DNA of 64,000 nt from a bacterium (GCA_035485275.1 DATHOE010000034.1:93677-157676), one strand, 5' to 3'. Shown: positions 19,848-61,889, numbered from the stretch's first letter. Program-made: numbers and translations. The notes: a model not told the origin generated them from the letters alone.

Positions 19848-19994
19848 AAGAAGGCAAGCTGGGGGGCTAGACTGGGATACCCGCTTAAAGTAAAATTACG
19901 CCCAGCTCGTTTTTGTTTCACAATCCCTGCCTGTTCTTCCGCGGCCTTCTTGTTCCACAAGAACCTGCGTGAAAAGGCTGAAAAGGCGACTACG

Positions 19995-41223: not shown

Positions 41224-42186
41224 TCATCTCCAGCCTCGGACAAAGGCCCGCCGGACGTAGCCCTTGAAATCGCCGAGGGTCCACGATCCGACGAGCATGC
41301 GCGGGAGCTCCCAAGGGGAGGTGGATCTCCGTACCGCGCAGGAACGGGTGGTGAAGGCGAAGCGATAGCCGGAATCCTTCAGGGCCAAAATGCTGGCCTG
41401 GTCGTATTGCCCGTTGGGATAGGCGAAGTAGGGGCTCTCCAGGCCCCAGCGCCTCAAATCCAGGTAGGATCCCCGTACTTCGGACCTTTGTGACGCGGGA
41501 GGGCGGCCCGCGAGGATGAAGTGACTCCTTGTGTGTCCGCCGACGGACATCCCGGGAGTGGAGGCCCAGGAACGCACTTCTCCCAGGGACATTATCCGGT
41601 GGCTGGGCCGGGGCCTGGCGGGTACTCCGGCCTTCCCCGATATCTCGCGAAGGGCCCGGGCCTGCGCGCTGGGGGACATCGCTTGAAGGAGGTCCCAAAG
41701 GCGGTCGAAGGTGTCCATCCAGTTTCGGCCCGGTTCCGGGAGGAGGCGGATCCCGCGGTACACAAGGGGAGCCCGGCGGCCGGCGTTCCCGTCTGAGAGG
41801 ATCCGTTCCAGGGCGTCCCAAAGGAATTCCCGTTTCCGGTTCACGTACCCGGTGGCCAGAAAAAGGAGGGCGGGTAGCCTCATTTGGTGCAAGACCGGGA
41901 GTGCCCCGGTCACGTTATCCGAGTATCCGTCGTCGAAGGTCAACATGATCGCCGGACGCCGGCGGGGCTTCATGATGTCCTCGGCTCCTATGACGTCGAA
42001 ATTCTCCGCCAGCCAAACCAACTGGCGCCGGAAGGCTTCCGGCGTCACTGTGATCCCGAAGGGATCCGTTTCGAAGTTCGCGATTCGGTGGTAGCCGAGC
42101 ACCAGGAGGGGAGCTTCCCAGAGGTTCCTGAGGGCGTTCACCGGAAAATGCGAGACACCTTTGATGCGATCCATGGACCAAGACAT
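41224..42186 (-). CDS. polysaccharide deacetylase (NodB-like)
   Basis: AIMLTFDDGYSDN motif and NodB-like organisation. Confidence 0.75.
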   Translation of the reverse strand: MSWSMDRIKGVSHFPVNALRNLWEAPLLVLGYHRIANFETDPFGITVTPEAFRRQLVWLAENFDVIGAEDIMKPRRRPAIMLTFDDGYSDNVTGALPVLHQMRLPALLFLATGYVNRKREFLWDALERILSDGNAGRRAPLVYRGIRLLPEPGRNWMDTFDRLWDLLQAMSPSAQARALREISGKAGVPARPRPSHRIMSLGEVRSWASTPGMSVGGHTRSHFILAGRPPASQRSEVRGSYLDLRRWGLESPYFAYPNGQYDQASILALKDSGYRFAFTTRSCAVRRSTSPWELPRMLVGSWTLGDFKGYVRRAFVRGWR

Positions 42187-42227
42187 GCGTTTCCCCTGTC
42201 CCCTTGCGGACGTTCCTCCGGCCCGCG

Positions 42228-43619
42228 TCAGCGTGCGGGCCCGGGGGCCAAGATGGCGTCGTAGATCGCGTCCACGCGCCGGACGTAGTCGCCGGATGAC
42301 TGCACGGTCGGCATAGCGGCGCCGTAACGGGTCAAGGCTCCCGGCTCGCTGCGCATCCGATCTATCGCGCGCGCGAGGGAGGCGACTGAACCGATCTCGA
42401 ACACTCGCCCGAAGCGGTCCTCAATGTCATAGTCCCTCAGGGTCGGGATATCGGGCGCTATAACCGGGCGTTTGTGGGCGAAGGACTCGAGCAGGGTCAG
42501 CGGCAGGTTCTCCATGCACTGCGAAGGAATCAGTGTGGCATCGATCCTGGAGAAAAAGGATGCGATGTCGCGGTGCGGAAGCCACCCCAGCCATTCGACG
42601 GTGTGCATGCCCACGTGCCCGGGATAGCGGGCGCGTAGTTCCTTAGCGAAATCGCCGTCCAGGCTGCCCGCGACCACGAGGCGCACCGGCGACGAGACCA
42701 CGCCGCTTTCAAGCGCCTGAAAGACCTCCCCCAAACCCTTGTCCGGCGCGATCCTTCCAATATAGCCGAAGGTGACTTCTCCCGACGCTTTGCATTTTGC
42801 GCCGGCATCCTGCACCGGATCGTAGTACCAGGGGATGACGTGGACCATCTTCCTATCTATGCCGAACTGGGAGAAGAACTCCGCGCCGAATGAATTGGCG
42901 ACGATCAGGGCCCCCAAAGCGGGGAGGGCGAGCCTGGCCCTCTCCAGATTCAGGGAAACCCTCCGCTTCAGGCCGACACGGAGGATTCCGCGCTCGCTGA
43001 GGGACCGGTCGAAGGGGAAGAGGCTCGTCGCCTCCAGGAGTCGTTCGCCGAAAAGCGTCGAAACGAGCATCTCGTTGAGCCTTCCGGCCGTTCGCCTGCC
43101 GGCCCAGACGCAGCGGGCGCATTTGTCGAGTTCCGCGGTCCCGTCGCAGAGCCCGCCTTCGCCCTTCACGAGATGCGACCGCAGGCAACCCAGGCCCCAG
43201 TCGTGGGCGGAGAAGACGGCCGGGATAGAGGAACGCCTCGCGGCCTCGAAGATCCACCACATTCCCGCGCCATGGTGCATATGGACGATGTCCGGCTTGA
43301 TTCTGCCGAGCAGTTCGCGGCCGATCCCAACCGCCTCCTCCCACCTCGCCTCGTTCAGCACTTGGCCCGAGTAGAGGTGGTTCAGATTCACGACATGGTA
43401 AGGGAGGCCCTGGAAGGTGTATTCCAGGCGCGAAACGATTTTAGGGGCGGCGGGGGCGGGCAGTGGGCCCTCCCATCCGTCCTGCCCCGGCCAGGTCAAT
43501 AGCTCCACGTCCCGGCCATGGTTTTCGCGCAGGGCCCGGGCTTGGCGGAAGACGTTGTTGTTGTATCCGACCGGATCGGGCCAGGCGTATTTGCTGACGA
43601 AAAGGATACGACCTGGCAT
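42228..43619 (-). CDS. glycosyltransferase family 4 (GT-B)
   Basis: MPGRILFVSKYAWPDP N-terminus, GT-B organisation. Confidence 0.8.
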   Translation of the reverse strand: MPGRILFVSKYAWPDPVGYNNNVFRQARALRENHGRDVELLTWPGQDGWEGPLPAPAAPKIVSRLEYTFQGLPYHVVNLNHLYSGQVLNEARWEEAVGIGRELLGRIKPDIVHMHHGAGMWWIFEAARRSSIPAVFSAHDWGLGCLRSHLVKGEGGLCDGTAELDKCARCVWAGRRTAGRLNEMLVSTLFGERLLEATSLFPFDRSLSERGILRVGLKRRVSLNLERARLALPALGALIVANSFGAEFFSQFGIDRKMVHVIPWYYDPVQDAGAKCKASGEVTFGYIGRIAPDKGLGEVFQALESGVVSSPVRLVVAGSLDGDFAKELRARYPGHVGMHTVEWLGWLPHRDIASFFSRIDATLIPSQCMENLPLTLLESFAHKRPVIAPDIPTLRDYDIEDRFGRVFEIGSVASLARAIDRMRSEPGALTRYGAAMPTVQSSGDYVRRVDAIYDAILAPGPAR

Positions 43620-43683
43620 CAGAGGCGTCCATTCAGCGGAGCTTCTTAAAGACCGGCCGAAGGCGGCGCCGGCAGACTCCTGT

Positions 43684-44796
43684 CTACTTAAAGAACTCGT
43701 TCACCGCCTGAATCACCCGCTCCTGGTCTTCCGCTTTGAGGTCCGCGTAGAAGGGCAGGCTCAGGATCTCCTCATATAGCCCCTCGGTGACCGGCAGAGG
43801 GATGCTGTAGGGGGCGAATTGTGGCTGAAGGTGGTTGGGGATGTAATTGACGCCGCTGTCCACTCCCCGTTCCCGCAGCCAGGCCATCAGGCCGGCCCTG
43901 CGGCCGCGCAGAACCCTGACGACATAAGTGAAAGGGAAGACATCATCTATAGGCCATTTCAACAGACGGAGTCCCGTCAGGGGCCGGAAGGCCTGGTTGT
44001 ACCGGGCGAGGATTTCGAGTTTCCGCGCCTTGAATTGTTCCATGCGGTCCAGTTGGACCAGGCCAATGGCCGCGCTGATGTTGCTCATATGGTAGCGCCA
44101 TCCGACCGTCTCCACCTGGTATCTCCACTCGTCCTGGGCCCCCATGCGCTGCCAGCGGTCCCGGCTGATTCCCAACACCCTTTTTTTGCGGGCCAATGCG
44201 GCCACCGCGGGGTCCGAGGTGACGATCGCCCCGCCCTCACCGCAGGTGATGTTCTTGATCGGGTCGAAGCTGAAGCAAGTGATCTGCCCGAACGAGCCGA
44301 TACGACGGCCGCGGTGGGTGGATCCGAAGGCATGGGCGGCGTCCTCAACCAGAACGGTTCCGTGCCGCTCGGACAGCTCCAGGAGCCGGTCCATGTCCGC
44401 GGGGATGCCGCAGTAGTGGACCGGGACGATGGCACGGGTGCGGGCGGTCACCTTGCGGGCGACATCTCCGACGTCCAGATTCAGGGTTTCCGGTTCCACC
44501 TCGCAAAAGACCGGGGTGGCTCCGGCCGCACGGATGGCCTGGATCGTGGCGCAAAAAGTGAGGGAGGGTACGATCACCTCCGCGCCGGCCGTGATGCCGG
44601 CGGACTCCAAGGCCAGATGCAGTGCGGCGGTGCCTGAAGAGACCGCCACGGTTTCGCGTCCGTCGAACAAGCTCCGCAGGCGCTCCTCGAAATTCAGCAC
44701 CTGTTTGCCGAAGCCCAGCCATCCGCTGGAAAGTACTTCGGCGACGGCCCCGGCCTCAAGCGCGCCGGTGCTTGGTTTGGAAACTGGAATCGTCAT
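43684..44796 (-). CDS. DegT/DnrJ/EryC1/StrS-family PLP-dependent sugar aminotransferase
   Basis: PLP-lysine context SFDPIKNITCGEGGAI, about 370 aa. Confidence 0.85.
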   Translation of the reverse strand: MTIPVSKPSTGALEAGAVAEVLSSGWLGFGKQVLNFEERLRSLFDGRETVAVSSGTAALHLALESAGITAGAEVIVPSLTFCATIQAIRAAGATPVFCEVEPETLNLDVGDVARKVTARTRAIVPVHYCGIPADMDRLLELSERHGTVLVEDAAHAFGSTHRGRRIGSFGQITCFSFDPIKNITCGEGGAIVTSDPAVAALARKKRVLGISRDRWQRMGAQDEWRYQVETVGWRYHMSNISAAIGLVQLDRMEQFKARKLEILARYNQAFRPLTGLRLLKWPIDDVFPFTYVVRVLRGRRAGLMAWLRERGVDSGVNYIPNHLQPQFAPYSIPLPVTEGLYEEILSLPFYADLKAEDQERVIQAVNEFFK

Positions 44797-45824
44797 CCCT
44801 TACGCCTCTTGATATCCATGGATGCCGCAGCCTGAAAACCGCTCGCCATCCAGTTCTGGGCCAAAATCTCCGCCAGGTCCGGCGAGAAGTGGCGGCGCCA
44901 CAGCAGGACGGAGGCCTCCGCCGGCCTCGCCAGCCAGGAGAGCCTGGCGCCCCATTTTTCCGCGAAACTGCCGTCCAAACCATAAAAGGCCGCCCTCAAT
45001 CCGTAGGTATAACGCAGCGCGCGCAGGTACGCCGAAACCCTGCTTTGGGCGGCCAGCCACTTGGTGAATGCCTCCCGTTCCGAGCCGGGCCGAAGAAGGT
45101 CCTGCGCACAGCCGTGCCGCTCGCGGAGCAGATAGACGACGGTCACCAGCACGTCCTCAAATCCTTGCTGATCCCCGCTTTCGGCCCGCGATGTCTGGCC
45201 GGGGTGCTTCCTTAGCATGATCAGGGGCCGTTTCATGCAGGCCAAGCGCCCCACGGCCGCAAGGTTCAGCCAGAGATCCTTGTCCTGGACGCTCAAAAGC
45301 GAGAGCTTGTATCCGCCTAGAGCCAAAGCCTTTTCCCGGGAAAAGACCACGGATGAATGCGGAATAGTGCGGCGCATTTCCAGCATGTCCGCCATCAGGG
45401 CATCGTGCTGCGACGCATAACGATGCCGCCGGACCTCCCTGCCTTCAGCGTCAATTTCCACGCAGCTCGTGCCCAGCAACACGAGGTCCGGTTCGCGAAG
45501 CAGCTGGTCGATTTGCTCGCTTAATTTTTCCGGAAGCCAGAGGTCGTCCTGGTCGATGCGTGCGATCCACGAGCCCTTGGCGAGCCGCAAACCCCGGTTG
45601 AGCGTATCGGATAGGCCGCTGTGTTTTTTGGCGACGACCTTTATGCGGCGGTCTTTTTTGGCGAGGGATCGGGCCAGGGGGAGCGAACCGTCCGTGGAGG
45701 CGTCGTCCAGGATGATGAGTTCCAGGTTTGCATGGGTTTGGGCGAGCACGCTGGAGACTGCCGTGGCTAGCCAACGGGACCCATTGTAGACTGGCAACAG
45801 CACCGACACCAAAGGAGGTTTCAA
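44793..45824 (-). CDS. glycosyltransferase family 2
   Basis: VSVLLPVYNGSRWL ... LIILDDASTDGS ... RIDQDD GT-A motifs. Confidence 0.8.
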   Translation of the reverse strand: MKPPLVSVLLPVYNGSRWLATAVSSVLAQTHANLELIILDDASTDGSLPLARSLAKKDRRIKVVAKKHSGLSDTLNRGLRLAKGSWIARIDQDDLWLPEKLSEQIDQLLREPDLVLLGTSCVEIDAEGREVRRHRYASQHDALMADMLEMRRTIPHSSVVFSREKALALGGYKLSLLSVQDKDLWLNLAAVGRLACMKRPLIMLRKHPGQTSRAESGDQQGFEDVLVTVVYLLRERHGCAQDLLRPGSEREAFTKWLAAQSRVSAYLRALRYTYGLRAAFYGLDGSFAEKWGARLSWLARPAEASVLLWRRHFSPDLAEILAQNWMASGFQAAASMDIKRRKG

Positions 45825-47108: not shown

Positions 47109-48491
47109 TTAAGCCGGCCACCTTTTTGATCCACTCGAAGTCAAAATTTTCCAAATGAACGCGGTGAGTAAAAACAAAAAAAGAGGATAGTAAATACCTG
47201 AGCCATAGAAATATGGCACCGGAATACCAATCATCTCAATGCAAATAACACATATCGTAAAATAAAATTTGAGTCTCTTGTCGGAAAGGCTCAACATATT
47301 CTTCAATACCCACGGCAGCAACGCGATGACCCAGAACAGTCTGATCATCCAGGTGAACGGTGCGCAAAAAAGCGTGATGAGTATTCCGAAGTAATAGAAA
47401 GTCAATGTGGGATCCAGGAAATCCGGAGATGTTCCACGTGCGAAAAAAAAAGTCAGAGCCCACAATAGCAGCGGGGTGAAAATCATAATTAATAGTCTGG
47501 AGATATGTAAACGCGATGCCATTTCTCGGGTGCCTGATCCGTTTGAGTTCTGGTCCATGAGCCCGCTGTCGTCATATATAACTCCATCGATGGTGTTTAT
47601 GGAGTCGGGCCAAGCCCGGGAATATATTTGGATTTCCCTGGAGCTTAACGACTGATTTTCACTCCCCAATTCTTCCGATTGGAAAATACGGCCCAAACGA
47701 TGCATGAAATAATCTTGGTTTACCGAAATGCCGTCCAAAGCGAGGCTGCTTCCAAAAAGCACGGCTACACCTAACAGGAATCCAACTAAAGTTGGACGCC
47801 AGCGCGTTAAGAATATTCCGGGCATGAACAAAAGGGTGTCCAGTTTTAGGAAGGTGGCCACCGCAAGGCAGGCCCCTAATGCGCAATGAGCCCAATTTTC
47901 TTTGAATCGACAGGCCAGAAAAAAACCCATGGTAATGACAAAAAATGTAATTCCGTCGATATTTGCTGCTTCGATCTGGGAGACTGTGGGGTAAAACCAA
48001 AAAGCGGTACCCAATACCGCGAACATCGGAAACAAAAATATGTCCAGCCACACGACATAGGTTGCCGCCGCAATCGACGCGACAATGCATGAAAAAATTA
48101 AAAGCGTCCAAATCAACTTGGCGCGGGCATACCTAAAATAAGTGAAAGGAACAAACAGTCTTGCCGTCAATGGGGGCAATAAAAAACCGCTGTTGGCGAA
48201 CGAGCTATAATCCCAGGTGCGGATGTCTTTCGCCATATTGTTGTCATAGGGAGAATATCCATCCCTCACGGAGAATCCGGTGCTATAGAAATCAAAAAAA
48301 TCACCTTGTGGGCCATGGGCGACTAGATGGCAGGTCCAGCCGGAAATCCAGATAAGTCCGCTCAAAAAATAGAGCATCATTAAGATTTTAAGTTTTCGTG
48401 GCGCTCTTTCCACTGATACTCCCTGTCGCGTATGTTTTTCCTTCCTTAGACCTTGGACCCAGTGCCGGATGCTCGGGTTGGCGTCACGCAT
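47109..48491 (-). CDS. polytopic membrane protein (lower-GC), putative GT-C/DUF2029-like or polymerase
   Basis: 460 aa, many TM helices, Phe/Trp/Tyr-rich; visibly AT-richer than flanking genes; start uncertain. Confidence 0.5.
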   Translation of the reverse strand: MRDANPSIRHWVQGLRKEKHTRQGVSVERAPRKLKILMMLYFLSGLIWISGWTCHLVAHGPQGDFFDFYSTGFSVRDGYSPYDNNMAKDIRTWDYSSFANSGFLLPPLTARLFVPFTYFRYARAKLIWTLLIFSCIVASIAAATYVVWLDIFLFPMFAVLGTAFWFYPTVSQIEAANIDGITFFVITMGFFLACRFKENWAHCALGACLAVATFLKLDTLLFMPGIFLTRWRPTLVGFLLGVAVLFGSSLALDGISVNQDYFMHRLGRIFQSEELGSENQSLSSREIQIYSRAWPDSINTIDGVIYDDSGLMDQNSNGSGTREMASRLHISRLLIMIFTPLLLWALTFFFARGTSPDFLDPTLTFYYFGILITLFCAPFTWMIRLFWVIALLPWVLKNMLSLSDKRLKFYFTICVICIEMIGIPVPYFYGSGIYYPLFLFLLTAFIWKILTSSGSKRWPA

Positions 48492-49551: not shown

Positions 49552-50607
<1,056 letters not shown>

Positions 50608-50608: not shown

Positions 50609-52114
50609 GTGGCCCAGCAGGCCCCGGTCACTGGCATGCGCGGCGCGGCGGTCCAGGGCGCGTTCTGGAGCATCGCCTTGGCCGTCGGCAATAAGGCCGT
50701 GACCACAGTGGGGCAGGTCGCGCTGGCTTGGTACCTTTTCCCGCGGGACATGGGGATCGTCGCGATGGCGGCCTCGGTGGTGGCGCTGGCCACTTTCTTC
50801 ACGGCCAGCGGCATCGACGACCTGCTGGTGCAGCGCCACGACTCCTATGAGCAGGACGCAACCCAGGTATTTTGGCTGTCCCTTTGTTTCAATGTCGTCG
50901 CGATGGCGGTCGCCGTGGCCTTGATCCCCTTCGCGGTCCGGCATTTCGGGGACGGGCGGGTGGGCCGCCTGATGCTCATCCAGGCGGCGAGTTGGCCGGT
51001 CTCCACCGTCACGCTGGTGCTCCGCCCGCAATTGGCCAATGTCCTGCGCTTCAAGGCCATCGCCGCGATCCGGCTCGGGGAGGGCGTGGTATTCACCGGC
51101 TGCGCGGTTTTTCTGGCCGCCCAGGGTTGGGGGCCCTACGCGCTCGTGTGGCCGACCCTCTTCTCGGCGATCTTTTCCGCCGCGGCTTTTTGGTGCCTGG
51201 CGGACAGGCCGCCCATGGGCTGGCCCAAGCCGGTTTCCTGGCCGGCCTACATCACCCCCGGCCTTCTGTTGATGGTGGGCAACTTCGTGGGGGTGATGGC
51301 GATCCAGATGCCGAACTTCATCATCGGAAGCCTGATGGACGCCCGCGGGACCGGCCTCTACGCCTGGGGCTACCTGGTGGCATCCCAGGCGATCTTCTTG
51401 CTGGTCCTCAATCTCCGCGGTTTGTTCACGCCGTTGTTTTCAAAACTGAAATCCGAGCCGGAGCGCCTGGCCAAGGCCACCGCGCAGGCCGCGTACGCCA
51501 TCACCGCGGTGGTCGCCCCGATATGCGTCCTGCAGGCGTTTTTCGCCCGTCCCCTGATCGAGACTTTTTTTCCGGCGCGCTGGACGGACGCGGTGCTGGT
51601 GGTGTACTGGCTGAGCCTGGGCTTTTGCGCCCAGCCGGTCGCCTTGATCACGCAGGCCGCCCTGATCGCGAAGGCCAGGTTCGGCCTGGCCTTGAGGCTG
51701 GCCCTGCTGCAGGCCGTCCTGGGGGCCCTGGGGGTGGCCTGGGGATGCCTCAAGAGCGGCATCGAGGGCGCGGCCGTGGGCGCGGCGGTTAGCGCCGTCC
51801 TATGCCTCCCGCTCAACCTGTGGATACTGCGCGGCGAGGTGGGCTGTTCCTGGCTCCGCTTGTTGGACGCGCCCAAAGCCATCCTATTCGGCGCCCTGGC
51901 TTTCCTTCCGTCGTGGGGGATCTTTTGGGCCTTCGGCGGCGCCTACCATTGGTGGTCCAACGCGGCGGAGGGCGTCGCCTACTGCGCGGTCCTGGCCCTG
52001 GTCTACAGGCTTTTCGACCCAGGCATGTTCGATGAACTCTCCGGATTGAGGTCCCTGATGCGGGGCGCCCCGGGGAAGCTTCCAGACCTTTCAAGGGGGG
52101 AGCAGTGCCCCTGA
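50609..52114 (+). CDS. Wzx-like flippase / polysaccharide biosynthesis protein (MOP family), second copy
   Basis: About 500 aa, 12-14 TM helices; GTG start 2 nt after gmd stop. Confidence 0.7.
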   Translation: MAQQAPVTGMRGAAVQGAFWSIALAVGNKAVTTVGQVALAWYLFPRDMGIVAMAASVVALATFFTASGIDDLLVQRHDSYEQDATQVFWLSLCFNVVAMAVAVALIPFAVRHFGDGRVGRLMLIQAASWPVSTVTLVLRPQLANVLRFKAIAAIRLGEGVVFTGCAVFLAAQGWGPYALVWPTLFSAIFSAAAFWCLADRPPMGWPKPVSWPAYITPGLLLMVGNFVGVMAIQMPNFIIGSLMDARGTGLYAWGYLVASQAIFLLVLNLRGLFTPLFSKLKSEPERLAKATAQAAYAITAVVAPICVLQAFFARPLIETFFPARWTDAVLVVYWLSLGFCAQPVALITQAALIAKARFGLALRLALLQAVLGALGVAWGCLKSGIEGAAVGAAVSAVLCLPLNLWILRGEVGCSWLRLLDAPKAILFGALAFLPSWGIFWAFGGAYHWWSNAAEGVAYCAVLALVYRLFDPGMFDELSGLRSLMRGAPGKLPDLSRGEQCP

Positions 52115-53370
52115 GAATATCCGCGGCCCTGCTGTACGCGGTCGCTTTCATGGCCCAATACCATTTTTTGATGGTCCCCCATTTCGGCTATTGGGGCTTC
52201 GGGGACCTCAGCGGCGTCCTGGAGTGCCTTTATCTTCTGCCTTTGATGGTGGCGCCGGCCCTGTGCATGCCCGAGCGGATCGACCGCCCGTCGGCGCTGT
52301 TCGCGTTTTTGAACTACACGATCATCTATGTGCCCGTCTGCGTGCTGCTGTTCCATTCCACGCTGACGTCGATCAGCCTCGCGGACCAATGGGCGATATT
52401 GATCGCCTTGGCCGCCAGCACTGCCTTGCTCTTTGAGGTCCCGCGTTTGCCCTCCATCCCCCTGCGCCGGGGCAGGCTGAGCGGGGGCGCGATTCTGGCT
52501 GCCTGCTGGTGCGTGCTGGGCGCGGTGGTGCTGATGACCCTCGCCGTCAACAGGATCGGGTTCTTCGGGTTCAAGGGGATCGGAGCCGCCAGGGCCGCCT
52601 ACACGGAAAATATCCGCCCTCTGGGCCCCTATTTCGGGTACTTCGACGCCTGGTGCGGCCTGGCGATCATCCCTTTCCTGTTCGTGGTCTGTTTAAGGAA
52701 AGACCGCCGCTGGGGCTGGCTGCTCCTGAGCGCGGTGTGCGTGCTGCTGTTCATGACCTCGGGGCGCAAGACCGCCCTGCTCACGCCCTTGGCGGTTTTG
52801 GGCAGCTATTTCGGGGTGAAGAAGGGTCTCAGGACCCCGGCGCTTTTGTTCGTGTTTTCGGGCCTCTTGCTGGTCCCCTTCGTCTTCGGGGCCCTCGGGC
52901 TCTCGGGCCCCCGCGACCTATACTACAATGTCATCAATTTCAGGATCTTCGCGGTGCCACAGATCCTTATCCCGCAGTATTACAGCTATTACCTGGCCAA
53001 CGGATTCACCCACTTCCGCAGCATCAATGTGGTCAACCGGTTTTTCTTTGGAGGGGCGGCGTTCGAGCAGCCCTGGGCCGCCATCGCCCGCTTCTATTAC
53101 AAGAAAAAATTCACGGCCGATGCCGTGTTCTATGCGACCGACGGCCTGGCGGCCTTGGGCATCGTGGGGATCCCCTGCGTGACCGCGGCTTGCGTTTTGG
53201 TTTTTTGGATCTTTGATTCCCTGCAAAAGGGGCATTCCGCGCTGTTGATGCTCCCCTGCATGATGCCCTTCCTTTTTTCGTTGTTCAACAATTCGCTGTT
53301 TACTACGATGCTCACCGGCGGTGGCTTCGTGCTGATGGCGCTGTTCTATCTGCTTCCGGATACCGCGTGA
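52105..53370 (+). CDS. polytopic membrane protein, putative Wzy-type polymerase
   Basis: 421 aa, about 10 TM helices, follows Wzx-like gene with overlapping start. Confidence 0.5.
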   Translation: MPLRISAALLYAVAFMAQYHFLMVPHFGYWGFGDLSGVLECLYLLPLMVAPALCMPERIDRPSALFAFLNYTIIYVPVCVLLFHSTLTSISLADQWAILIALAASTALLFEVPRLPSIPLRRGRLSGGAILAACWCVLGAVVLMTLAVNRIGFFGFKGIGAARAAYTENIRPLGPYFGYFDAWCGLAIIPFLFVVCLRKDRRWGWLLLSAVCVLLFMTSGRKTALLTPLAVLGSYFGVKKGLRTPALLFVFSGLLLVPFVFGALGLSGPRDLYYNVINFRIFAVPQILIPQYYSYYLANGFTHFRSINVVNRFFFGGAAFEQPWAAIARFYYKKKFTADAVFYATDGLAALGIVGIPCVTAACVLVFWIFDSLQKGHSALLMLPCMMPFLFSLFNNSLFTTMLTGGGFVLMALFYLLPDTA

Positions 53371-53410: not shown

Positions 53411-53983
53411 GTGAAGTCGGCCGTACGGAAATGGTGGGGACGTTGCGCCGCTTTGGCGGTGTGTCTCCTTTTGATGCAAGTGGCCTGGTTCGAGTATGTG
53501 TTCAGTTGCCCGGCCCCCGCGCTCCAGGCGGACATGCTGGCGGTCTATGGCGGGGATCCCCCGCGCTACGCCCTGGGCTGGGCCGTCGAGCGGCAGGGCC
53601 GCTTCAATTTTCTGGTCTTTTCCGACGCCCACGCCGATTTTTTGGCCCAGATGAAGGGCCAATATGGTCCGCCGCGCGCCGCGCGCTTGCTGCTCGAACC
53701 GCGGGCCCGGTCCACCGCCCAGAACGCGCGTTATGTGGCCGTGCTCATCCGCGACCATGGGTGCAGGAGCGTGCTGGTCATCACGTCCTGGTGGCACCTG
53801 CCCAGGGCTCTCTTTTTGACCCACCTTGCGTTGCTGGGCAGCGGCGTGGAAATTTCCGGCCTGGGCTCGGAGCTGCGTCCCTCGGTGGCGTGGAACGATC
53901 GCCGCGTGTGGGAGGAGCTGATCCGGTTCTGGGGCTCGTTGCTGACGTTCACGTCGGACACCCACAACACCTCTTTTCTTTAG
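53411..53983 (+). CDS. DUF218 (YdcF/ElyC/SanA-like) family protein
   Basis: STAQNARYVAVLIRDHGCRSVLVITSWWHLPRA pattern typical of DUF218. Confidence 0.6.
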   Translation: MKSAVRKWWGRCAALAVCLLLMQVAWFEYVFSCPAPALQADMLAVYGGDPPRYALGWAVERQGRFNFLVFSDAHADFLAQMKGQYGPPRAARLLLEPRARSTAQNARYVAVLIRDHGCRSVLVITSWWHLPRALFLTHLALLGSGVEISGLGSELRPSVAWNDRRVWEELIRFWGSLLTFTSDTHNTSFL

Positions 53984-54000
53984 CGTTCCAGGGACAGGGC

Positions 54001-55917
54001 GTGGCCAAAGTGCGTATCTCATTTTTGGGAAAAGGCGGCGCGTTTTGCGCGCTCCTGGTTTTGGCGGCCTGTGTTCAGGCCCACGATTATTTTGTCGCCC
54101 CCTCTGGGATGGACAGCAACCCCGGCACCCTGGACCAGCCCTTCCGGACCCTTGCCTGGGCGGTCCCCTATGTCCGCGCGGGGGATACCCTGTATCTTCG
54201 CGCCGGGGTGTACCGTCAGGCCGTCAGCGTCGAACACGGCGGCACCGCGTCGGCGCCGGCCGTGTTCAGCGCCTACGGGGCGGAAGCCGCGGTTTTAGCG
54301 GGTAGCGATCCCCTTGTCGGAACCTGGAAAAAATACGACGGGAAGATATGGTGCCTGGACGGCGTGTCACGCACCTCGGACCTTTTCGTGGACGGCCAGG
54401 AGATGTCCATAGCCCGATGGCCGACTGCGGGTCCCGGTGCGCCCATGGACCAGGGATGGGCCCTCACCGGCGCCGGAACCAACGCGGCGGTCGTCGCAGA
54501 TCCCCATTTACCGGACCTTCCCCTGGTCGGGGCCCGGGTGCACATCGTCCCCGGCTTGGCCTGGGTCAGCTTCACCCGGTCGATCAAGGAATACGGGCGG
54601 GGAAGGCTCACCCTGTCGAGCCCGGTTTGCGGCGCGACGCCCGCCTATTGCCCCAGGCCCGGAAACCGCTATTTCCTTTACGGGAGCCTGGCCCTCTTGG
54701 GCGGCCCCGGCGAGTGGTACCAGGACCCGGCGACACTGCGGATCTACCTCTGGGCCCCGGACGGCCGCGACCCCGCCGACCACCTGGTTGAGGTGGCGCG
54801 GCGCAAGGCGGTCATCCGGGACGACGGCTATTCCCACGTCGAATTCCGGAATCTGCACACCTTCAGCGGGGGCATCAAGATCAGCCGCTGTGTGGGATGC
54901 AGGGTGATCGGGGTGGACCAGCGTTACGTGCAGCGCTATACGGAGGTGGAGGGATATTCCGCCGAAAATCCCACGAATTCGCTCTACGCCGGAAGCGACT
55001 GCGAATGGGCGGACGGATCCATTGAGGGAAGCAGCGGCGACGGTCTGGCGGTTTCCGGCACGCACCAGCACGTGCACGACATGCTCATCCACGACGTGTG
55101 CCGGGAAGCCAGCTACTCGGGGGCCCTGGCCCTGCTCGGAAGCGGGCAGGTCATCGAGAACAACACCCTCTATGACAGCGGTCGCTATCTCATCAACCTG
55201 GGGACAACCCACGGCGGACGCATCGCCCACAACGACCTGTACAATTCCGGCTTGCTGACGAACGACTCGGGGGCCATCTATTCATATGACACCGACGGCG
55301 CCGGCATGGTCATTGCCTTCAACGACGTGCACCATGCGCCCGGCACCCGCGGTGTCGGGATCTACCTCGACAACGGCGACTCCGACTACGTGGTGCTTCA
55401 CAATCTTGTCCATGACTGCGCCTGGGCCGGGGTCGAATTGAACCTGCCGAGCAACTGCAATGTCGTCTGCAACAACACGCTTTGGAATTGCAAGCATTGG
55501 GTTTGGGCCGACGGCAACATCCATTACCACTCGATGACCGGCACGGTGCTGGCGAACAATGTGGTCAACGGGACCGAATTGCTGGTGAGGGACCGTTTGG
55601 CGCCCGTCCAGGTGCGCAACGCCGCCCTGCTCCAGCCGCCGCAGCTCTTCGCGCCGGGCGGCTTCTCACTGGCCGCGGGCTCCTGGGCCATCGCTTCGGG
55701 GGTTTCGATCCCGCCCTATACCGACGGCGGATGCGGCGCGGCCCCGGACCTGGGGGCCATCAATTACGGCTGCGGCCAGGATTGGAGCGCGGGTTGCGCC
55801 CGCAGGCCGGCGGCCTTCCCGTATCCGGCGCTGGAAATGCTCGGCATGGGTCCGTCCCCGGGCCCGGACCCCCGGACGGAGCACCCTTCGGCCGGCGGAG
55901 CTGCGCCGTGGAACTAG
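54001..55917 (+). CDS. secreted right-handed parallel beta-helix repeat protein (pectate-lyase-like fold; candidate polysaccharide lyase/hydrolase)
   Basis: Signal peptide ISFLGKGGAFCALLVLAACVQA; repetitive NN/ND-rich beta-helix pattern (NNTLYDSG, AHNDLYNSG, AFNDVHHAPG, LHNLVHDC, CNNTLWNC); GTG start 54001 or 54010; upstream part of ORF 53431 is an off-frame artefact. Confidence 0.65.
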   Translation: MAKVRISFLGKGGAFCALLVLAACVQAHDYFVAPSGMDSNPGTLDQPFRTLAWAVPYVRAGDTLYLRAGVYRQAVSVEHGGTASAPAVFSAYGAEAAVLAGSDPLVGTWKKYDGKIWCLDGVSRTSDLFVDGQEMSIARWPTAGPGAPMDQGWALTGAGTNAAVVADPHLPDLPLVGARVHIVPGLAWVSFTRSIKEYGRGRLTLSSPVCGATPAYCPRPGNRYFLYGSLALLGGPGEWYQDPATLRIYLWAPDGRDPADHLVEVARRKAVIRDDGYSHVEFRNLHTFSGGIKISRCVGCRVIGVDQRYVQRYTEVEGYSAENPTNSLYAGSDCEWADGSIEGSSGDGLAVSGTHQHVHDMLIHDVCREASYSGALALLGSGQVIENNTLYDSGRYLINLGTTHGGRIAHNDLYNSGLLTNDSGAIYSYDTDGAGMVIAFNDVHHAPGTRGVGIYLDNGDSDYVVLHNLVHDCAWAGVELNLPSNCNVVCNNTLWNCKHWVWADGNIHYHSMTGTVLANNVVNGTELLVRDRLAPVQVRNAALLQPPQLFAPGGFSLAAGSWAIASGVSIPPYTDGGCGAAPDLGAINYGCGQDWSAGCARRPAAFPYPALEMLGMGPSPGPDPRTEHPSAGGAAPWN

Positions 55918-55940
55918 GGCGTCCGGCAAGGCAGGGGCGG

Positions 55941-57149
55941 GTTTGCCTTCTTTGGCATCGTTTTGGGCCATACCATCACGCCCGCTTGAAGGCCGTCCAG
56001 GCCTTGCGGGACTGCGTCGGGGTCGAGTTCTCCTCCGTTGATCCGACCTACGCCTGGGACAAGGTGGCCGCGAAATCCGGCTCCAAGATGGTGACCTTGT
56101 TTTCCGACAGCTTTTCGCAGGACATCCCGGTCCGGAGGATCGAACGCAGGCTCGGGGAGGTCTTCGCCGCCATCCGCCCCGCGGCGGTCGTCATCCCCGG
56201 TTGGTCCGACCGGGTTCCGCTGGCGGCCCTCGAATGGTGCGTCAGGCAGCGTGTCCCCGCGGTGCTGATGTCGCCGAGCCAGCGGGGCGATGCGCCCCGG
56301 GTCTGGTACAAGGAGTGGCCGAAAAGGCGGATCGTGAGCCTCTTCAGCGCGGCCTTGGTCGGCGGTGCGCCCCAGAAACGCTATTTGACGGAGCTGGGCT
56401 TTCCCGGCGAAAGGGTCTTTTTCGGTTACAACGTCGTCGATAACGCCCATTTCTCCAAAGGGGCGAGGAAGGCGCGCAATTCCGGGGAGGCGCTCCGCAT
56501 GCGGCTGGGGCTTCCAAAGGATTACTTCCTGGTCTCGACCCGCTTTGTTCCGAAAAAAAACCTGGAGAGATTCCTGGCGGCCTACGCCGCCTATACACGG
56601 AAGGTTTCAGGGCGACCCTGGAGCCTAATCCTCCTGGGCGACGGACCCCTGCGGCCCAAGCTGGAAAGCATGGTCGACGCGCTGGGTTTGCGGAATTTTG
56701 TGGGCATGCCTGGCTTCAAACAATACAATGACTTGCCCGTCTATTATGGATTGGCGAAAGCCATGGTGTTGCCGAGCGCGTCTGAGCAGTGGGGCTTGGT
56801 CGTGAATGAGGCCATGGCGGCCGGCCTGCCGGTGCTGGTGTCCGGCGCTTGCGGCTGCGCGGAAGACCTTGTTCGTGACGGGGTGAACGGTTTTTTGCTG
56901 GACCCCTTGGACACGGAGCAAATGGCTGAAGCCCTTCTCAGGACCAGCCGGGCGAAGAAAAAATTGGCCCACATGGGCGCGCTGGGCGCCCGGATCATAG
57001 GGCAGTGGAGTCCGCGGACCTTTGCCGAAGGCCTGTCGCGGGCCTTAGAGTCGGCGCTGAGGGCCCCGTCGGCCGGATTCGGGCCCCTCGACAGGATGAT
57101 TCTCGGCGTGGTCCAGCGCCAGAATCTAAAAGGTTACCGGGATCAATGA
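55941..57149 (+). CDS. glycosyltransferase family 4 (GT-B); start codon unresolved
   Basis: SASEQWGLVVNEAMAAGLPVLVSGACGCAEDLV motif; no canonical start found just upstream of the homologous region. Confidence 0.7.
   Translation, partial: VCLLWHRFGPYHHARLKAVQALRDCVGVEFSSVDPTYAWDKVAAKSGSKMVTLFSDSFSQDIPVRRIERRLGEVFAAIRPAAVVIPGWSDRVPLAALEWCVRQRVPAVLMSPSQRGDAPRVWYKEWPKRRIVSLFSAALVGGAPQKRYLTELGFPGERVFFGYNVVDNAHFSKGARKARNSGEALRMRLGLPKDYFLVSTRFVPKKNLERFLAAYAAYTRKVSGRPWSLILLGDGPLRPKLESMVDALGLRNFVGMPGFKQYNDLPVYYGLAKAMVLPSASEQWGLVVNEAMAAGLPVLVSGACGCAEDLVRDGVNGFLLDPLDTEQMAEALLRTSRAKKKLAHMGALGARIIGQWSPRTFAEGLSRALESALRAPSAGFGPLDRMILGVVQRQNLKGYRDQ
56553..56560 (+). repeat. A8 homopolymeric tract inside GT4 coding sequence
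   Basis: ttccgAAAAAAAAcctgg read directly (encodes PKKNL). Confidence 0.85.
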
Positions 57150-57185
57150 TGTCATTCGGTCAATTAGCGGGCGTCGGGTTGAAAC

Positions 57186-58472
57186 GTGGGTAGGCCGAAA
57201 ATAGGCATCGTCTCCGGAATTCTGAACCCCAGATACGGCGGACCACCGGCGGTGATACGCGGCCACATCCGCGGGCTCGGCTCGCGGGCCGAAGTGAAGG
57301 TCTTCGGCGTGCAGGATCCCGGGGACGAGGCGGAGTTGCGCGGCCTCTATCCGGGATGCGAGCTGTTTCCGAGGGCCTTTCCGAAGCGCTGGTTCAGGGG
57401 CCAGGGCCTGCGCCAGGCTCTGGTCGAGCAGGCGCCGGGCCTGGATCTCCTCCACGCCCACATGCTTTGGGACCACACCGTGTGGGCGACGGCCCACGCC
57501 GCGCGCAGCGCCAAGGTGCCCTTCATCGTTTCGCCCCACGGCAACATTTTGAACGTCGAACCGTGGTGGCCGCCGCACAAGGTCGCCTACCGTGAAATCG
57601 TCCTCAAACCCCTGCTGAAAAATTGCGCCTTCGTGCACGCCCTGAGCGAGCGCGAGGCCGAAGGCTGCCGGCGCTTCGGGGTCGTCTGCCCCATCCGCGT
57701 GATCCCCAACGGCCTGCCGCTGTCCGACTACTCCCTGCGCAGGGATCCGGAGCTGGCGCTGGAGACCTGGCCCGCCCTGAGGGGACGGAGGGTCCTGCTG
57801 TTCATAGGTCGCCTGGCGCCGCTCAAGGGCCTGGACATGCTGTTGAACGCGTGGAGCCGCTGCCTGCACGACCCGAGTTTGCGCGACTGGATTTTGGTGA
57901 TCGCCGGCCACGACTACCGTGGCTACGCCCAGCAGGTCGCGCTCCAGGTGAAGGCGCTGGGTCTGGAGGGAAGCGTGATCCTTCCGGGACCCGTGCTGGG
58001 GGCCCTGAAACAGTCCCTGCTGGGCCATGCCGAGGCCTTCGCCCTGCCCTCCCGCACGGAAGGCTTCAGCGTCGCCCTCCTGGAGGCCCTGTCGGCGTCC
58101 CTGCCCTGCGTGTACACGACCGAATGCCATTTCAGCGACCTGGCCAAGAAGGGCGGGGGCTGGGAGGTCCAGCCCAACGCCGGCGACCTTTCCGAGGCCC
58201 TCGAGCTCGCGTTGCGGCAGACGCCGGAACGCTTGAAGAGCATGGGCGCGGCCGGGAACGCCCTGGGCCGGGCCAAGTACAGCCTTGAACGGGTGGCGGA
58301 CCAGCTGCTGGACATGTATAGGACGGCGCTGGGGCGGCGGGGGCTTCCGCCGCCGCGGAACGCCGGCCTGGCATACCATAAAAACGGGGCCCAAAAAGGG
58401 CGCGGGCCGGCGCAGACGGCCGTGCAATTCAGCTGGCGCAGGACCGGAGGCGGATGGGCTCGTCCGGCCTAG
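57186..58472 (+). CDS. glycosyltransferase family 4 (GT-B)
   Basis: KIGIVSGILNPRYGGPPAV N-terminus; FALPSRTEGFSVALLEALSASLPCV motif; GTG start. Confidence 0.8.
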   Translation: MGRPKIGIVSGILNPRYGGPPAVIRGHIRGLGSRAEVKVFGVQDPGDEAELRGLYPGCELFPRAFPKRWFRGQGLRQALVEQAPGLDLLHAHMLWDHTVWATAHAARSAKVPFIVSPHGNILNVEPWWPPHKVAYREIVLKPLLKNCAFVHALSEREAEGCRRFGVVCPIRVIPNGLPLSDYSLRRDPELALETWPALRGRRVLLFIGRLAPLKGLDMLLNAWSRCLHDPSLRDWILVIAGHDYRGYAQQVALQVKALGLEGSVILPGPVLGALKQSLLGHAEAFALPSRTEGFSVALLEALSASLPCVYTTECHFSDLAKKGGGWEVQPNAGDLSEALELALRQTPERLKSMGAAGNALGRAKYSLERVADQLLDMYRTALGRRGLPPPRNAGLAYHKNGAQKGRGPAQTAVQFSWRRTGGGWARPA

Positions 58473-59569
58473 GCCGCGATTTTTTTGCGCAAATCCATGA
58501 AGGGCTTTTCGACCAGCAGGTAGGACGCCGCACCCAATACCAGCGAAAAGACGATACAAAAAAATTGGGACTCCAACGATTCGCCTCCGAACAAGATCAC
58601 GGCCGCCAAGAGGCCGACCGTATGAAGCAGGTACAGCGAATAGGAGATGGTCCCCAGCCAGTGGAACGCTAAAAAACCCGGGGTCCTTCCTTGTTTCGTC
58701 TCCGTGGGCGCAAGTTCCAGCATCACCAGCGTCAGGATCAGGAACGCGCAAGCATAGGGCATGATCCATCGGTTCAGTTCGGATCCGTGAAACCTGAGGT
58801 TGAGGACCGGGACCAGGAAATTCAAGGCTATCGCCAGGAAAAGAAAGCCGAGCGTCCGGCCCCGGGGCCCGTAAAAATTTTTCAGCTTTTCGAAACTCGC
58901 CTTTTTGACGGTCCATTCCGCGAGCAGGGCCCCGAGGTACCAGGACCAGAATGTGGTGATGAAAACTTCCTGCGCGACAATCCGCCAGGGATTCGCCTCG
59001 GCGATGAAACGGCTCACGAAAAAATACCAGACGAGCGCGGCCATGAAGGCCAGGGTGAGCTGCTTCAGGGAGAAATCCAGCGCTTTGAAAGCCAGGGCGT
59101 AACAGAGATAAAACTGGGCCTCGAGAGCGATGGTCCAAAACGGGCCGTTGATCGTGCGCCAGCCGAGGGGATAGAAATTGTGCGCAAAAATGAAGTGGAA
59201 GAAAACGTCGTAGGCGCCCAGCGGGGGGCTGATGTCCCCCGTGGTCCGGAAACAGCCGGCAATCAGGCAAACGACGATCGCGAAGTAGTAAGCGGGCACG
59301 ATCCTGAATATGCGGTTCAGCGCGAACGGCCGCAAGGCCAAGCCCCCCTGCCCCCGTTCCGCCCGTATGGCCTGGGGGCGATGGATGCAAAAACCGCTCA
59401 ACACGAAGAAAATGCTCACCCCCCAGAAGCCCAAATTACGCAGTATGGGGTGGTAGCCGTTCAGGTGGTCGTAATATTGGCGGTACATATGGAAAACCAA
59501 CACGGCGAAGGCGGCAATTCCACGCAACACATCCAAGGAATCCAGGCGTTGTTTTGGCGCTGATTGCAT
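58469..59569 (-). CDS. acyltransferase family 3 membrane O-acyltransferase
   Basis: LDVLRGIAAFAVLVFH ... SIFFVLSGFCI signature. Confidence 0.8.
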   Translation of the reverse strand: MQSAPKQRLDSLDVLRGIAAFAVLVFHMYRQYYDHLNGYHPILRNLGFWGVSIFFVLSGFCIHRPQAIRAERGQGGLALRPFALNRIFRIVPAYYFAIVVCLIAGCFRTTGDISPPLGAYDVFFHFIFAHNFYPLGWRTINGPFWTIALEAQFYLCYALAFKALDFSLKQLTLAFMAALVWYFFVSRFIAEANPWRIVAQEVFITTFWSWYLGALLAEWTVKKASFEKLKNFYGPRGRTLGFLFLAIALNFLVPVLNLRFHGSELNRWIMPYACAFLILTLVMLELAPTETKQGRTPGFLAFHWLGTISYSLYLLHTVGLLAAVILFGGESLESQFFCIVFSLVLGAASYLLVEKPFMDLRKKIAA

Positions 59570-59763: not shown

Positions 59764-60498
59764 TTACGAGGCGGTCAGCGCCGCGTTTTCCCCCAGGAAG
59801 CCTTCGGCCTCGGCGCCGGCCCGTTCCAGCCCTTCCTGGAGCCGTCGCAGGTCCCCGTTTTGGTCCCCGTTGTCCCGGTTGAAACGCAGCTCCTCCCCGA
59901 ACCAGAAGACTCCATGGGCAAAGGGCGGCGCCACGACCATCCGGTCCCAGCTCTTCAGCCTCGGGGCCGGCCGGCAGGCGAACGCGACGGGGACGACGGA
60001 GCAGCCGCTGAGGCGGGCCAGCTTGACGGCCCCGTCTTTCGCCTCGCGGCGGGGTCCCTTCGGGCCGTCCACGGTGAGCAGGACGTGTTCGCCGCGTCCG
60101 AGGAAGCTTTGCAGCTCCAGCAGGCCGGTGCTGCCGCCCCGTGTGGAGGAGCCGCGCGCCGGTTCGAGCCAGCCCAGGCGCACCAGGGCCCGGCTGATCA
60201 GCTCGCCGTCGAAACTTTGGCTGGCCAGGGCGTGCAGTGGCTGGCCGCGGTAAAAACCGGCGATCAGGGAGTTTTCGTGCCAGACGGCGTAGATGAAGGG
60301 TTTTTCGGGGGCTGCAAAGGGCGACAGGGAGGTCTGGCCGGCCTCCTTGATCTTCCAGGTGGCGGCAAGGCCCCTCAAGGTCCAGGCCCCCAGGCGTGGA
60401 ACCGTGGAAAGGATCAATTTTTCCTTCAAATTTCTGGGCTGCATATTTTTTTTATCCCCAAATTGAAAGCAATTGTCCAGCGCCTTTAGATCGGGCAA
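59764..60498 (-). CDS. DUF374-like lysophospholipid-acyltransferase-family protein
   Basis: FIYAVWHENSLIAGFY ... LASQSFDGELISRAL ... LLTVDGPKGPRREAKDGAVKLARLSGCSVVPV pattern; start (60498 or 60444) uncertain. Confidence 0.55.
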   Translation of the reverse strand: MPDLKALDNCFQFGDKKNMQPRNLKEKLILSTVPRLGAWTLRGLAATWKIKEAGQTSLSPFAAPEKPFIYAVWHENSLIAGFYRGQPLHALASQSFDGELISRALVRLGWLEPARGSSTRGGSTGLLELQSFLGRGEHVLLTVDGPKGPRREAKDGAVKLARLSGCSVVPVAFACRPAPRLKSWDRMVVAPPFAHGVFWFGEELRFNRDNGDQNGDLRRLQEGLERAGAEAEGFLGENAALTAS

Positions 60499-60578
60499 CT
60501 TTGGGCCGTTTTCGCCGTATCCTTAAGGTGGGTGAAGAAAAGACTTTGGACGTCGGGCAAGGCCTTTGGGGGAAAACC

Positions 60579-61889
60579 ATGACCATGATGCGAGCCACGA
60601 TTCTGGGCCTCCTTTTGGCGGGCCTGCCTCCCCTGTGCGCGCAGGGCGCCCAGCACGCTTGGGGAGGCGTCCAAAGCGGGGGCGCCCCCCGCCAGGCGGC
60701 CCCCGCGCGGCAGCCCCTGGTCATCAATATGGGCCGGCCCAGCAGCGGCTACGCCCGCAATTTCCCCTCCCAACAACGGGCCCAGGCGGCCCCTGCGGCG
60801 CGGCCCTCCTGGGGCCACGTCAACTGGTCGGCGTCGGTCTCCGGCCGGGGGGCGATGCCCGGCCGCTCATACGGCGCGGCGCAGCCTCGCACAGCCCGGC
60901 CCTCCGCCTCGTCCTGGGCCGGTTCGGCCTTCGGCGGGCTGCGCCCGGCAGCGGGAACGCGCATGGCCGTCGCCCGCCACCACCATCCTTACACCCAGGG
61001 CTATGTGCGCCACAAACTGCGCACCCTGGGCGTGACCGCGGAACCCAGCCTGATCACCGACCGCTCGGAGATGCTCCACACCGACGCGGCGCATTCGACC
61101 ATCCGCTACCCCACACGGGGGCCCCAGGGCGCGGCCCTGCCCACGCGGCGCCTGAATCCGGCCCAGGCCTCGGACGCGGCGCTGGTGCGCGCGCACATGG
61201 GCAGGGTGGACGATCCCGGCTGGCGGGCCAACGTGGAAAGCTACAACAGCATCGAGAACAGGCCGGGACACTACTATTGGCACAAGGACAACGGCTTCAA
61301 CTATTGCCATTACCTCGACGCTTCCGGCTATCAATGGTACGGATGGTACCTGGGGGACGGATTCTTTTGGACCCGGGATTTCAACGGCCGCTGGTGGTGG
61401 TATGACCAGGCGGACGCGCGCTGGGACTTCTATAACGACAATTTTTGGTGGTGGCAGGACCCGGACCACGTCGGCGACCTGTATTGCTACAACGACGGGG
61501 CCTACATACCCGTCAATTCGGCCGAGGACCAGATCGTCGTGAGCCAGCCCGACACCACGGACTACCAGACCTTCACCAGCCCGGACGGCAGCCGCGAGGT
61601 GAAGCTGGTCGCCGGAGGCTCGGACGCCTTCCTGTACGACACCGCGGTGCCGCCCTCATTCGACCCCGTGTACCTGGCCTCAGGCGTGCAGAGCGTGCAG
61701 TTCTCGGACACCAGCAACGGCCGGCCTTTGGAGATCGTGCTCAGGCTCGACGACGGTTCCTTCGACCTCTTCGACGCCCAGGGCCAGGCCTATGGCCCGG
61801 GCAACAACGACACGGACGCCGCGAACTATGAAAGCGGCGACGGCTCGGCCCCGGGGGACACCATCCCCTCCCAGCCGGTCAATCCCTGA
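60579..61889 (+). CDS. secreted hypothetical protein with disordered Ala/Pro/Arg-rich region and Trp/Tyr-rich repeat domain
   Basis: ATG at 60579 preceded by GGGGGA; signal peptide MTMMRATILGLLLAGLPPLCAQGA; aromatic block with RWWWYDQ / NFWWWQD. Confidence 0.6.
   Translation: MTMMRATILGLLLAGLPPLCAQGAQHAWGGVQSGGAPRQAAPARQPLVINMGRPSSGYARNFPSQQRAQAAPAARPSWGHVNWSASVSGRGAMPGRSYGAAQPRTARPSASSWAGSAFGGLRPAAGTRMAVARHHHPYTQGYVRHKLRTLGVTAEPSLITDRSEMLHTDAAHSTIRYPTRGPQGAALPTRRLNPAQASDAALVRAHMGRVDDPGWRANVESYNSIENRPGHYYWHKDNGFNYCHYLDASGYQWYGWYLGDGFFWTRDFNGRWWWYDQADARWDFYNDNFWWWQDPDHVGDLYCYNDGAYIPVNSAEDQIVVSQPDTTDYQTFTSPDGSREVKLVAGGSDAFLYDTAVPPSFDPVYLASGVQSVQFSDTSNGRPLEIVLRLDDGSFDLFDAQGQAYGPGNNDTDAANYESGDGSAPGDTIPSQPVNP

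Follow-up and report, generated by a model that had tools for sequence, protein, structure and literature searches.

Background

The closest described relatives of the protein considered here belong to the glycoside hydrolase family GH141, which includes the founding member BT_1002 of Bacteroides thetaiotaomicron (5MQP in the PDB), the xylanase Xyn141E and the Wf141 endo-fucanases. The activities of GH141 include fucosidase, endo-fucanase and xylanase, and the enzymes are catabolic (PMC10154630; PMC12786026). In BT_1002 the residues D523 and D564 were found to be critical by mutagenesis and have been assigned as the nucleophile and the acid/base (PMC10154630; PMC12786026), while a demonstration of the mechanism by which GH141 enzymes act is still lacking (PMC10154630). 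BT_1002 carries an insertion domain, which comprises residues 109–295 (PMC10154630).

Glycanases encoded within clusters for polysaccharide synthesis are a well-known theme, of which beta-helix examples exist; the arrangement described below is a familiar one and introduces no new biological principle. PslG, BcsZ, AlgL and PelA are exported polymer-cleaving enzymes encoded inside biosynthetic clusters, with folds or families unrelated to those of the protein studied here, so that the analogy is one of role. WceF from Pantoea stewartii is a right-handed beta-helix hydrolase encoded in a cluster for EPS synthesis (PMC7949094). The likeness of our locus to the WceF/AmsF systems of Pantoea and Erwinia, i.e. 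a beta-helix glycanase gene within an EPS cluster, is again limited to the role, whereas WceF is a tailspike-like trimer with no detectable homology to our protein, and its structure was absent both among the 50 Foldseek matches listed and from the results of the sequence searches.

Results and discussion

The gene and the N-terminus of its product

The analyzed window is a stretch of 64,000 nucleotides from a bacterium (GCA_035485275.1, DATHOE010000034.1:93677-157676), and all features mentioned below are on its + strand. The gene of the beta-helix protein occupies positions 54001..55917, beginning with GTG and ending with the stop codon TAG (55915-55917); the ORF of ~640 aa announced in an earlier note on this DNA is intact and comprises 638 codons, corresponding to a protein of 638 aa. 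An identical protein, P0001, is present on two public contigs, and independent gene callers have chosen the same start. A chance ORF of high-GC DNA was ruled out by homologs found at E=0 and by the thousands of members of the family.

The protein is predicted to carry a Sec-type signal peptide (residues 1–27, positions 54001..54081), as read by eye from its N-terminus, MAKVRISFLGKGGAFCALLVLAAC-VQA/HDY (also written MAKVRISFLGKGGAFCALLVLAACVQA/HDY), where the slash follows VQA27 and marks the predicted cleavage site. Basic residues are followed by a hydrophobic segment (residues ~6–27), which is the only one in the entire protein, and the AxA-type site VQA/HD is aligned with LAA/HDY and LRA/QDY of the orthologs; the claim of a signal peptide made in the earlier note agrees with all these features. 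The sequence L21-A-A-C24 is also compatible with a lipobox, and lipidation is therefore possible, but uncertain, because the Cys residue is missing from most orthologs.

Domain architecture

The AlphaFold model, built on an alignment of 15 sequences (mean pLDDT 83, pTM 0.84), exhibits a right-handed beta-helix that is interrupted by a beta-sandwich. The N-terminal cap with the first coils (residues ~28–100, positions 54082..54300) is modeled with pLDDT >94 and includes a DUF1565/Pel9A-like motif (PF22842, PF07602); it matches residues 2–98 of XylC as well as the N-termini of GH141 and PL9 proteins. It is followed by the inserted beta-sandwich (residues ~101–262, positions 54301..54786), which is all-beta in the model, exhibits a conserved PGEWY motif (236–240) and is aligned by hhalign to the insertion domain of BT_1002; the match of Pfam GH141_M to residues 223–251 is weak (16.3 bits, under the cutoff of 27). 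[quoted passage not shown] Thus, the hallmarks of the beta-helix superfamily, i.e. stacked three-strand coils, an Asn ladder and the Pfam Beta_helix match, are all present, and the fold named in the earlier note is borne out by both Pfam and the model. The "Asn-rich" pattern of that note holds for residues 270–540 (8.5% Asn), but not for the protein as a whole (4.4% Asn).

The beta-helix is followed by a conserved C-terminal motif (residues ~555–600, positions 55663..55800) of the form GS.AI..G ... APDLGA..YG...W.AG, modeled with pLDDT <60, in which the conserved columns are S561, G567, G579, P582, D583, G585, A586, W595 and G598. The Pro/Gly-rich tail (residues 601–638, positions 55801..55914) is unconserved and unstructured in the model (pLDDT 28–34).

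Relationship to GH141 and the candidate catalytic pair

The comparison of the predicted structure with PL and GH families, which had been recommended in the earlier note, identified GH141 as the best fold match, with its catalytic Asp pair conserved; the lack of conserved catalytic residues, by which the earlier note would have seen its proposal refuted, was therefore not observed. The top match of the Foldseek search in the PDB was 5MQP, i.e. BT_1002 (E 4e-20, TM 0.58–0.62). For the profile-profile comparison, homologs of BT_1002 were fetched and aligned, and hhalign of the window protein's family against this GH141 alignment returned a probability of 99.4–99.5% and E of about 1e-22 over 385–435 columns, which extend from the cap through the insertion into the helix.

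The same alignment pairs D422 (LTN-D-SGAIY) with the GH141 motif HMY-D-VAGIY and D457 (GIYL-D-NG) with YLYT-D-EG. The aligned GH141 aspartates are positions 528 and 569 in the SEQRES of 5MQP, which, given the +5 offset of the tag, form the sole pair of Asp residues 41 positions apart that fits D523 and D564. D422 (codon at 55264..55266) would accordingly be the candidate counterpart of the putative nucleophile D523, and D457 in the motif GIYLDN (codon at 55369..55371) that of D564; these residues are conserved in 97% and 98% of 156 family representatives, respectively, and both are invariant in the 15-sequence alignment. The pairing was reproduced by BLASTP with P0017 (E 2e-7), in an alignment significant in both regions; P0017 is a bona fide homolog of GH141, since it scores 340 bits with the HMM of the BT_1002 clade. 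Within its coil, D422 precedes the position stacked on D457 by ~8 residues, and only the homology to BT_1002 suggests that the two side chains may be close to each other on adjacent coils.

In direct comparisons, the BT_1002-clade HMM scores the window protein with 17 bits, over the N-terminus and the insertion only, phmmer against 5MQP gives E 1e-4, and 5MQP was missed by a plain HMM search with a sub-profile of the catalytic region. Profile comparison indicates that the protein is homologous to GH141, yet by the direct HMM score it falls outside the BT_1002 clade. The two share the composition of cap, inserted beta-sandwich and beta-helix, as well as the essential Asp pair, whereas their sequences are only 15–20% identical and the catalytic domain of GH141 has ~100 additional loop residues.

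Other beta-helix families

The second fold match was the GH120 beta-xylosidase XylC (3VST, Foldseek E 7.5e-15), while GH136, phage capsule depolymerases, PL9, GH110 and AlgG followed far behind GH141 and GH120. Similarity to XylC is strong at the N-terminus and confined to it (91 bits). In the alignment, the nucleophile D382 of XylC coincides with D457, but its acid/base residue E405 falls opposite N481, a position occupied by Asn in 84% of the family of the window protein. Membership in GH120 was rejected for want of a conserved catalytic pair.

Among solved structures, the closest relative in sequence is 9RX2, a "Parallel beta-helix repeat protein" of 717 aa, which the family profile matches with 107 bits (E 5e-30, positions 18–491) and which retains both Asp motifs (LGDGNGIY and GIRTDGG). 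It differs from the window protein in the large insertions in its helix, has no stated function and is absent among the Foldseek matches listed. With the GH141 profile it reaches 58 bits, and it is thus intermediate between the window family and GH141. A literature search found no paper on 9RX2 or on the "parallel beta-helix repeat protein". Origin from a phage depolymerase was rejected too, the viral matches of Foldseek being generic beta-helix or tailspike structures (TM <=0.48).

Genomic neighborhood

The beta-helix gene is a member of a co-directional run that begins with Gmd, a GDP-mannose 4,6-dehydratase (49552..50607; Pfam GDP_Man_Dehyd, 5.6e-144), and continues with a Wzx-type flippase (50609..52114; Pfam Polysacc_synt_3, 1.7e-44) and a polytopic membrane protein of 421 aa with ~9–10 hydrophobic segments (52105..53370). 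No family was found for the latter in Pfam or NCBIfam, even at relaxed thresholds, and its position suggests a Wzy-type polymerase. The following DUF218 gene (53411..53983; Pfam PF02698, 190 aa with one N-terminal TM segment, 12–33) ends 17 nt ahead of the beta-helix start. Downstream are two GT4 glycosyltransferases, GT4a (55908..57149; Pfam Glycos_transf_1) and GT4b (57186..58472; identified by Pfam), so the neighbors named in the earlier note are indeed in place. The GTG start of GT4a overlaps the stop of the beta-helix gene by 10 nt, and the same overlap is present in the related loci L001, L010 and L011. A scan for terminators and promoters found no intergenic terminator within the co-directional run and only weak consensus matches, each of which lay either within a coding sequence or on the opposite strand. 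The surrounding ~45 kb form a polysaccharide region with Wza, Wzc, a second Wzx, Wzy, many glycosyltransferases, acyltransferases and a carbamoyltransferase.

The beta-helix gene is directly upstream of GT4a in all five close relatives, whose proteins range from identical (P0001) through 68% (P0002), 62% (P0003) and 59% (P0004) to 53% identity (P0005). The order of the entire cassette could be assessed only on the longer contigs (L001, L002 and L004), and there Gmd/Wzx/TM421/(DUF218)/BH/GT4/GT4/DUF374 is kept, with proteins 45–81% identical: Wzx is syntenic in all three, Gmd also precedes Wzx in L001, and GT4b is 81% (L001) and 67% (L004) identical. In L001, L002, L004 and L007 the 421-aa protein is likewise encoded ahead of the beta-helix protein. 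DUF218 is present in L001, L002, L004, L010 and L011, while in L007 it is absent and the gene of the 421-aa protein directly precedes that of the beta-helix protein; thus, DUF218 is not an obligate partner. These syntenic relatives are probably one lineage, and the kept gene order may therefore in part reflect shared ancestry rather than selection.

More distant members of the family are found in other contexts: P0008 and P0026 adjoin genes of GH123 and GH2, P0006 is flanked by GGDEF genes, and neither P0012 nor P0013 lies in a polysaccharide locus. The neighbors from GH123 and GH2 are consistent with a glycan-cleaving family, and the broad family looks like a group of glycan-cleaving enzymes, one clade of which has become part of a biosynthetic operon.

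Possible function

The earlier note had offered a dedicated depolymerase as one of its options, and the GH141 homology, the conserved Asp pair and the recurrent context of polysaccharide genes lend it partial support at the level of sequence. We lean, with moderate confidence, towards an exported GH141-like glycoside hydrolase that acts on the polymer of its own cassette by means of D422 and D457. The gene, its modeled fold, the homology to GH141, the conservation of the Asp pair and the operon arrangement with its recurrence in relatives were observed directly, whereas we infer export, catalytic activity, the stereochemistry of the reaction and the nature of the substrate. Such an enzyme would be exported by the Sec pathway, would be either periplasmic or lipid-anchored, and would hydrolyze glycosidic bonds by means of two carboxylates, D422 and D457, on adjacent coils. 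Its gene would be co-transcribed and translationally coupled with the Gmd/Wzx/putative Wzy/GT4 cassette, and owing to this co-transcription and coupling the most likely substrate would be the polysaccharide of the cassette. The enzyme may cut chains back, set them free, or remove stray polymer from the periplasm. Roles of this kind are known for PslG, BcsZ, AlgL and PelA in other polysaccharide systems. The beta-helix hydrolase WceF is another example (PMC7949094).

The alternatives are less supported than a hydrolase of the cassette's own polymer. The characterized GH141 enzymes are catabolic, in contrast to the location of our gene in a biosynthetic operon, and the distant members P0008 and P0026 are found next to GH123 and GH2 genes, with P0012 and P0013 also outside polysaccharide loci; perhaps the window protein could then be a catabolic hydrolase of an exogenous glycan, such as a fucose- or xylose-containing polymer of plants or algae, with its position in the locus being functionally meaningless. 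We consider this rather improbable, as the gene is wedged between DUF218 (17-nt gap) and GT4a (10-nt overlap), the arrangement recurs in 5/5 close relatives down to 53% identity, and the search of the surrounding 45 kb found neither another catabolic GH nor a transporter or regulator. The idea of a lyase or C5-epimerase for a polysaccharide that contains uronic acids, in the manner of PL9, PL6 or AlgG, would account for the match of the N-terminal 45–60 residues to Pel9A/PelN of PL9 and to rhamnogalacturonan lyase, for the presence of PL9, PL6 and AlgG among the lower Foldseek matches and for the weak NCBIfam match to AlgG (E 0.023). However, the similarity to PL9 is confined to the N-terminal cap (residues 20–80), which is common to GH120 and GH141, the TM values are 0.26–0.35 compared to ~0.6 for GH141, and what is conserved is an Asp/Asp pair like that of GH141. 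The epimerase option of the earlier note fares no better: the alignment with the AlgG profile has E 0.09–0.14, the structural match is weak (TM 0.26–0.28), and the DPHD motif is missing from the aligned stretch, where its counterpart is a non-conserved segment, so that a mannuronan C5-epimerase of the AlgG/AlgE type was rejected. The only "DPH" in the window protein (residues 167–169) is within the insertion domain. Nor was there any sign of uronic acids, in that no dehydrogenase of UDP-glucose or GDP-mannose came to light among the ~50 ORFs of the window that were scanned, and a lyase or epimerase appears quite improbable altogether.

The beta-helix is also a common fold of adhesins and binding proteins, WceF aggregates in a lectin-like fashion with its substrate (PMC7949094), and several positions conserved in the family are changed in the clade of the window protein; among 156 representatives, it departs from the highly conserved positions by E73Q, Y368R and D234G. 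Could it be a protein that binds glycans or serves as a scaffold or adhesin, e.g. a beta-helix lectin or a component of the export apparatus? We regard a non-catalytic role of this kind as very unlikely, since both Asp residues and their motifs, D-x-G-x-I-Y and G-I-Y-L-D-N, are kept in every member of the clade. The adhesin suggested in the earlier note likewise finds no backing, since Pfam and NCBIfam returned no autotransporter, pertactin or adhesin match at E<=1 and the protein has neither a C-terminal barrel nor an anchor domain. An autotransporter was rejected for its C-terminus, which is a short, disordered, Pro-rich tail without a beta-barrel.

The presence of Gmd in the operon suggests, although only as a lead, that the polymer of the cassette contains a 6-deoxyhexose derived from GDP-mannose; the window showed neither fcl nor rmd, nor a clear per gene. 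An extension of the idea, which we put forward as a speculation and regard as unlikely, is that P0001–P0005 represent an unrecognized, biosynthesis-coupled class of GH141-like enzymes that arose from the catabolic family and that would, together with the 421-aa protein and mostly also DUF218, set the chain length of a polymer containing a GDP-mannose-derived 6-deoxyhexose or release it. The choice of a 6-deoxyhexose polymer follows from the presence of Gmd in the operon and from the fucosidic and xylosidic linkages cleaved by GH141 enzymes. In this scenario, the 421-aa membrane protein would possibly be a new type of Wzy polymerase.

If our reading is correct, a GH141-like beta-helix enzyme would join the glycanases embedded in loci for polysaccharide synthesis, and it could find use as a depolymerase specific to the polysaccharide that an uncultured bacterium makes.

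Size and conservation of the family

A word-indexed search found 24 matches, as if the protein were rare, but the exhaustive profile search revealed 82,940 cluster representatives at E<=1e-3, of which 6,041 also passed the threshold of E<=1e-30. The apparent rarity was therefore an artifact of the sensitivity of the word-indexed search, and the family is very large; the candidate pair D422/D457 would constitute a concrete catalytic hypothesis for this family, with its 6,041 clusters at the stricter threshold. A literature search found no published function for any member. Conservation figures refer to 156 diverse representatives, in which three Asn residues, one per coil (N441, N468 and N492), are conserved without exception (156/156), and the Asn series N411, N441, N468, N492 and N520 is 92–100% conserved. 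The conserved polar residues of the helix core comprise, apart from D422 and D457, also Y427, Y455, H444, H467, R395, N411, N441, N468 and N492. The best 150 profile matches all score >510 bits, nearly all of them over almost the whole profile, and many are multidomain giants.

Divergent residues of the beta-helix protein

Three positions that are 85–97% conserved among the 156 diverse representatives of the wider family (E73, D234 and Y368) are occupied by Q, G and R, respectively, in the predicted GH141-like hydrolase encoded in the window (codons 54217–54219, 54700–54702 and 55102–55104). The same three positions are variable inside the locus-associated clade, and the changes may correspond to an altered substrate subsite. 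Family members encoded elsewhere bear varied C-terminal additions: P0006 and P0007 possess long Ser/Thr/Pro-rich linkers followed by a small terminal domain (P0006 is flanked by GGDEF genes), P0009–P0013 share a conserved module of ~200 aa, and P0072 (4240 aa) comprises about 8 tandem copies of the domain itself.

Organization of the cassette and the surrounding super-locus

The 421-aa membrane protein (window 52105–53370), with ~9–10 hydrophobic segments, shows no match to any family in Pfam or NCBIfam, even at E≤1. In relatives its gene is invariably located just upstream of the beta-helix gene, and the protein is a candidate for a divergent Wzy-type polymerase. The DUF218 gene is dispensable for the cassette, because it is missing from the region around the close relative P0002 (L007, 1–2827), where the gene for the 421-aa protein directly overlaps the start of the beta-helix gene. 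On the other side, the start of the first GT4 gene (GT4a) is a GTG codon at 55908 rather than a codon 3' of the beta-helix stop, and the resulting 10-nt overlap (55908–55917) recurs in the contigs L001, L010 and L011. This overlap indicates that translation of the beta-helix gene and GT4a is coupled.

The beta-helix gene lies within a polysaccharide super-locus of ~45 kb (15544–63846), which includes genes for Wza (19950–20717), a Wzc-type tyrosine kinase (20714–22684), two Wzx flippases (24098–25603 and 50609–52114), Wzy (27979–29415), a carbamoyltransferase (32656–34437, minus strand) and a WecA/MraY-type initiating transferase (38741–40330), together with glycosyltransferases of the GT4 (~8), GT2 (3), GT9 (1) and GT87-like (2) types and four Acyl_transf_3 genes. 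The super-locus probably encodes more than one polymer. A sub-cluster on the minus strand (41224–45824) recalls the ArnB/ArnC/ArnD logic: a DegT-family aminotransferase, whose top NCBIfam matches (PseC and ArnB) both score below the cutoff, is encoded there with a GT2 gene in overlap, and genes for a GT4 and a polysaccharide deacetylase are also present. The GT87-like GT-C genes are found nearby (47109–48491 and 34740–35894), and the sub-cluster may serve the periplasmic transfer of a lipid-linked amino sugar.

Additional observations on the window

Two long opposite-strand ORFs (57126–59390, 754 aa, and 6962–11443, 1493 aa, both minus) and an upstream in-frame ORF (53431–54000, plus), which would lengthen the beta-helix ORF by 190 codons at its 5' end, coincide in part with genes that are well supported; all three most likely arise as artefacts of the high GC content. 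The DUF374 gene (59764–60498, minus strand) and an unclassified 497-aa ORF (60396–61889, plus strand) overlap at their 5' ends by ~100 nt with the predicted start codons, and both are kept in L001 and L002, two contigs bearing relatives of the beta-helix gene. Outside the polysaccharide region, a gene set at 6366–14482 resembles alternative complex III, with a multihaem cytochrome c7/c3, a molybdopterin-like Fe-S subunit (1049 aa), an NrfD-like membrane subunit and a cytochrome c; it is followed by TatC (14719–15456), and bioF- and bioD-like genes occupy 3380–5208.
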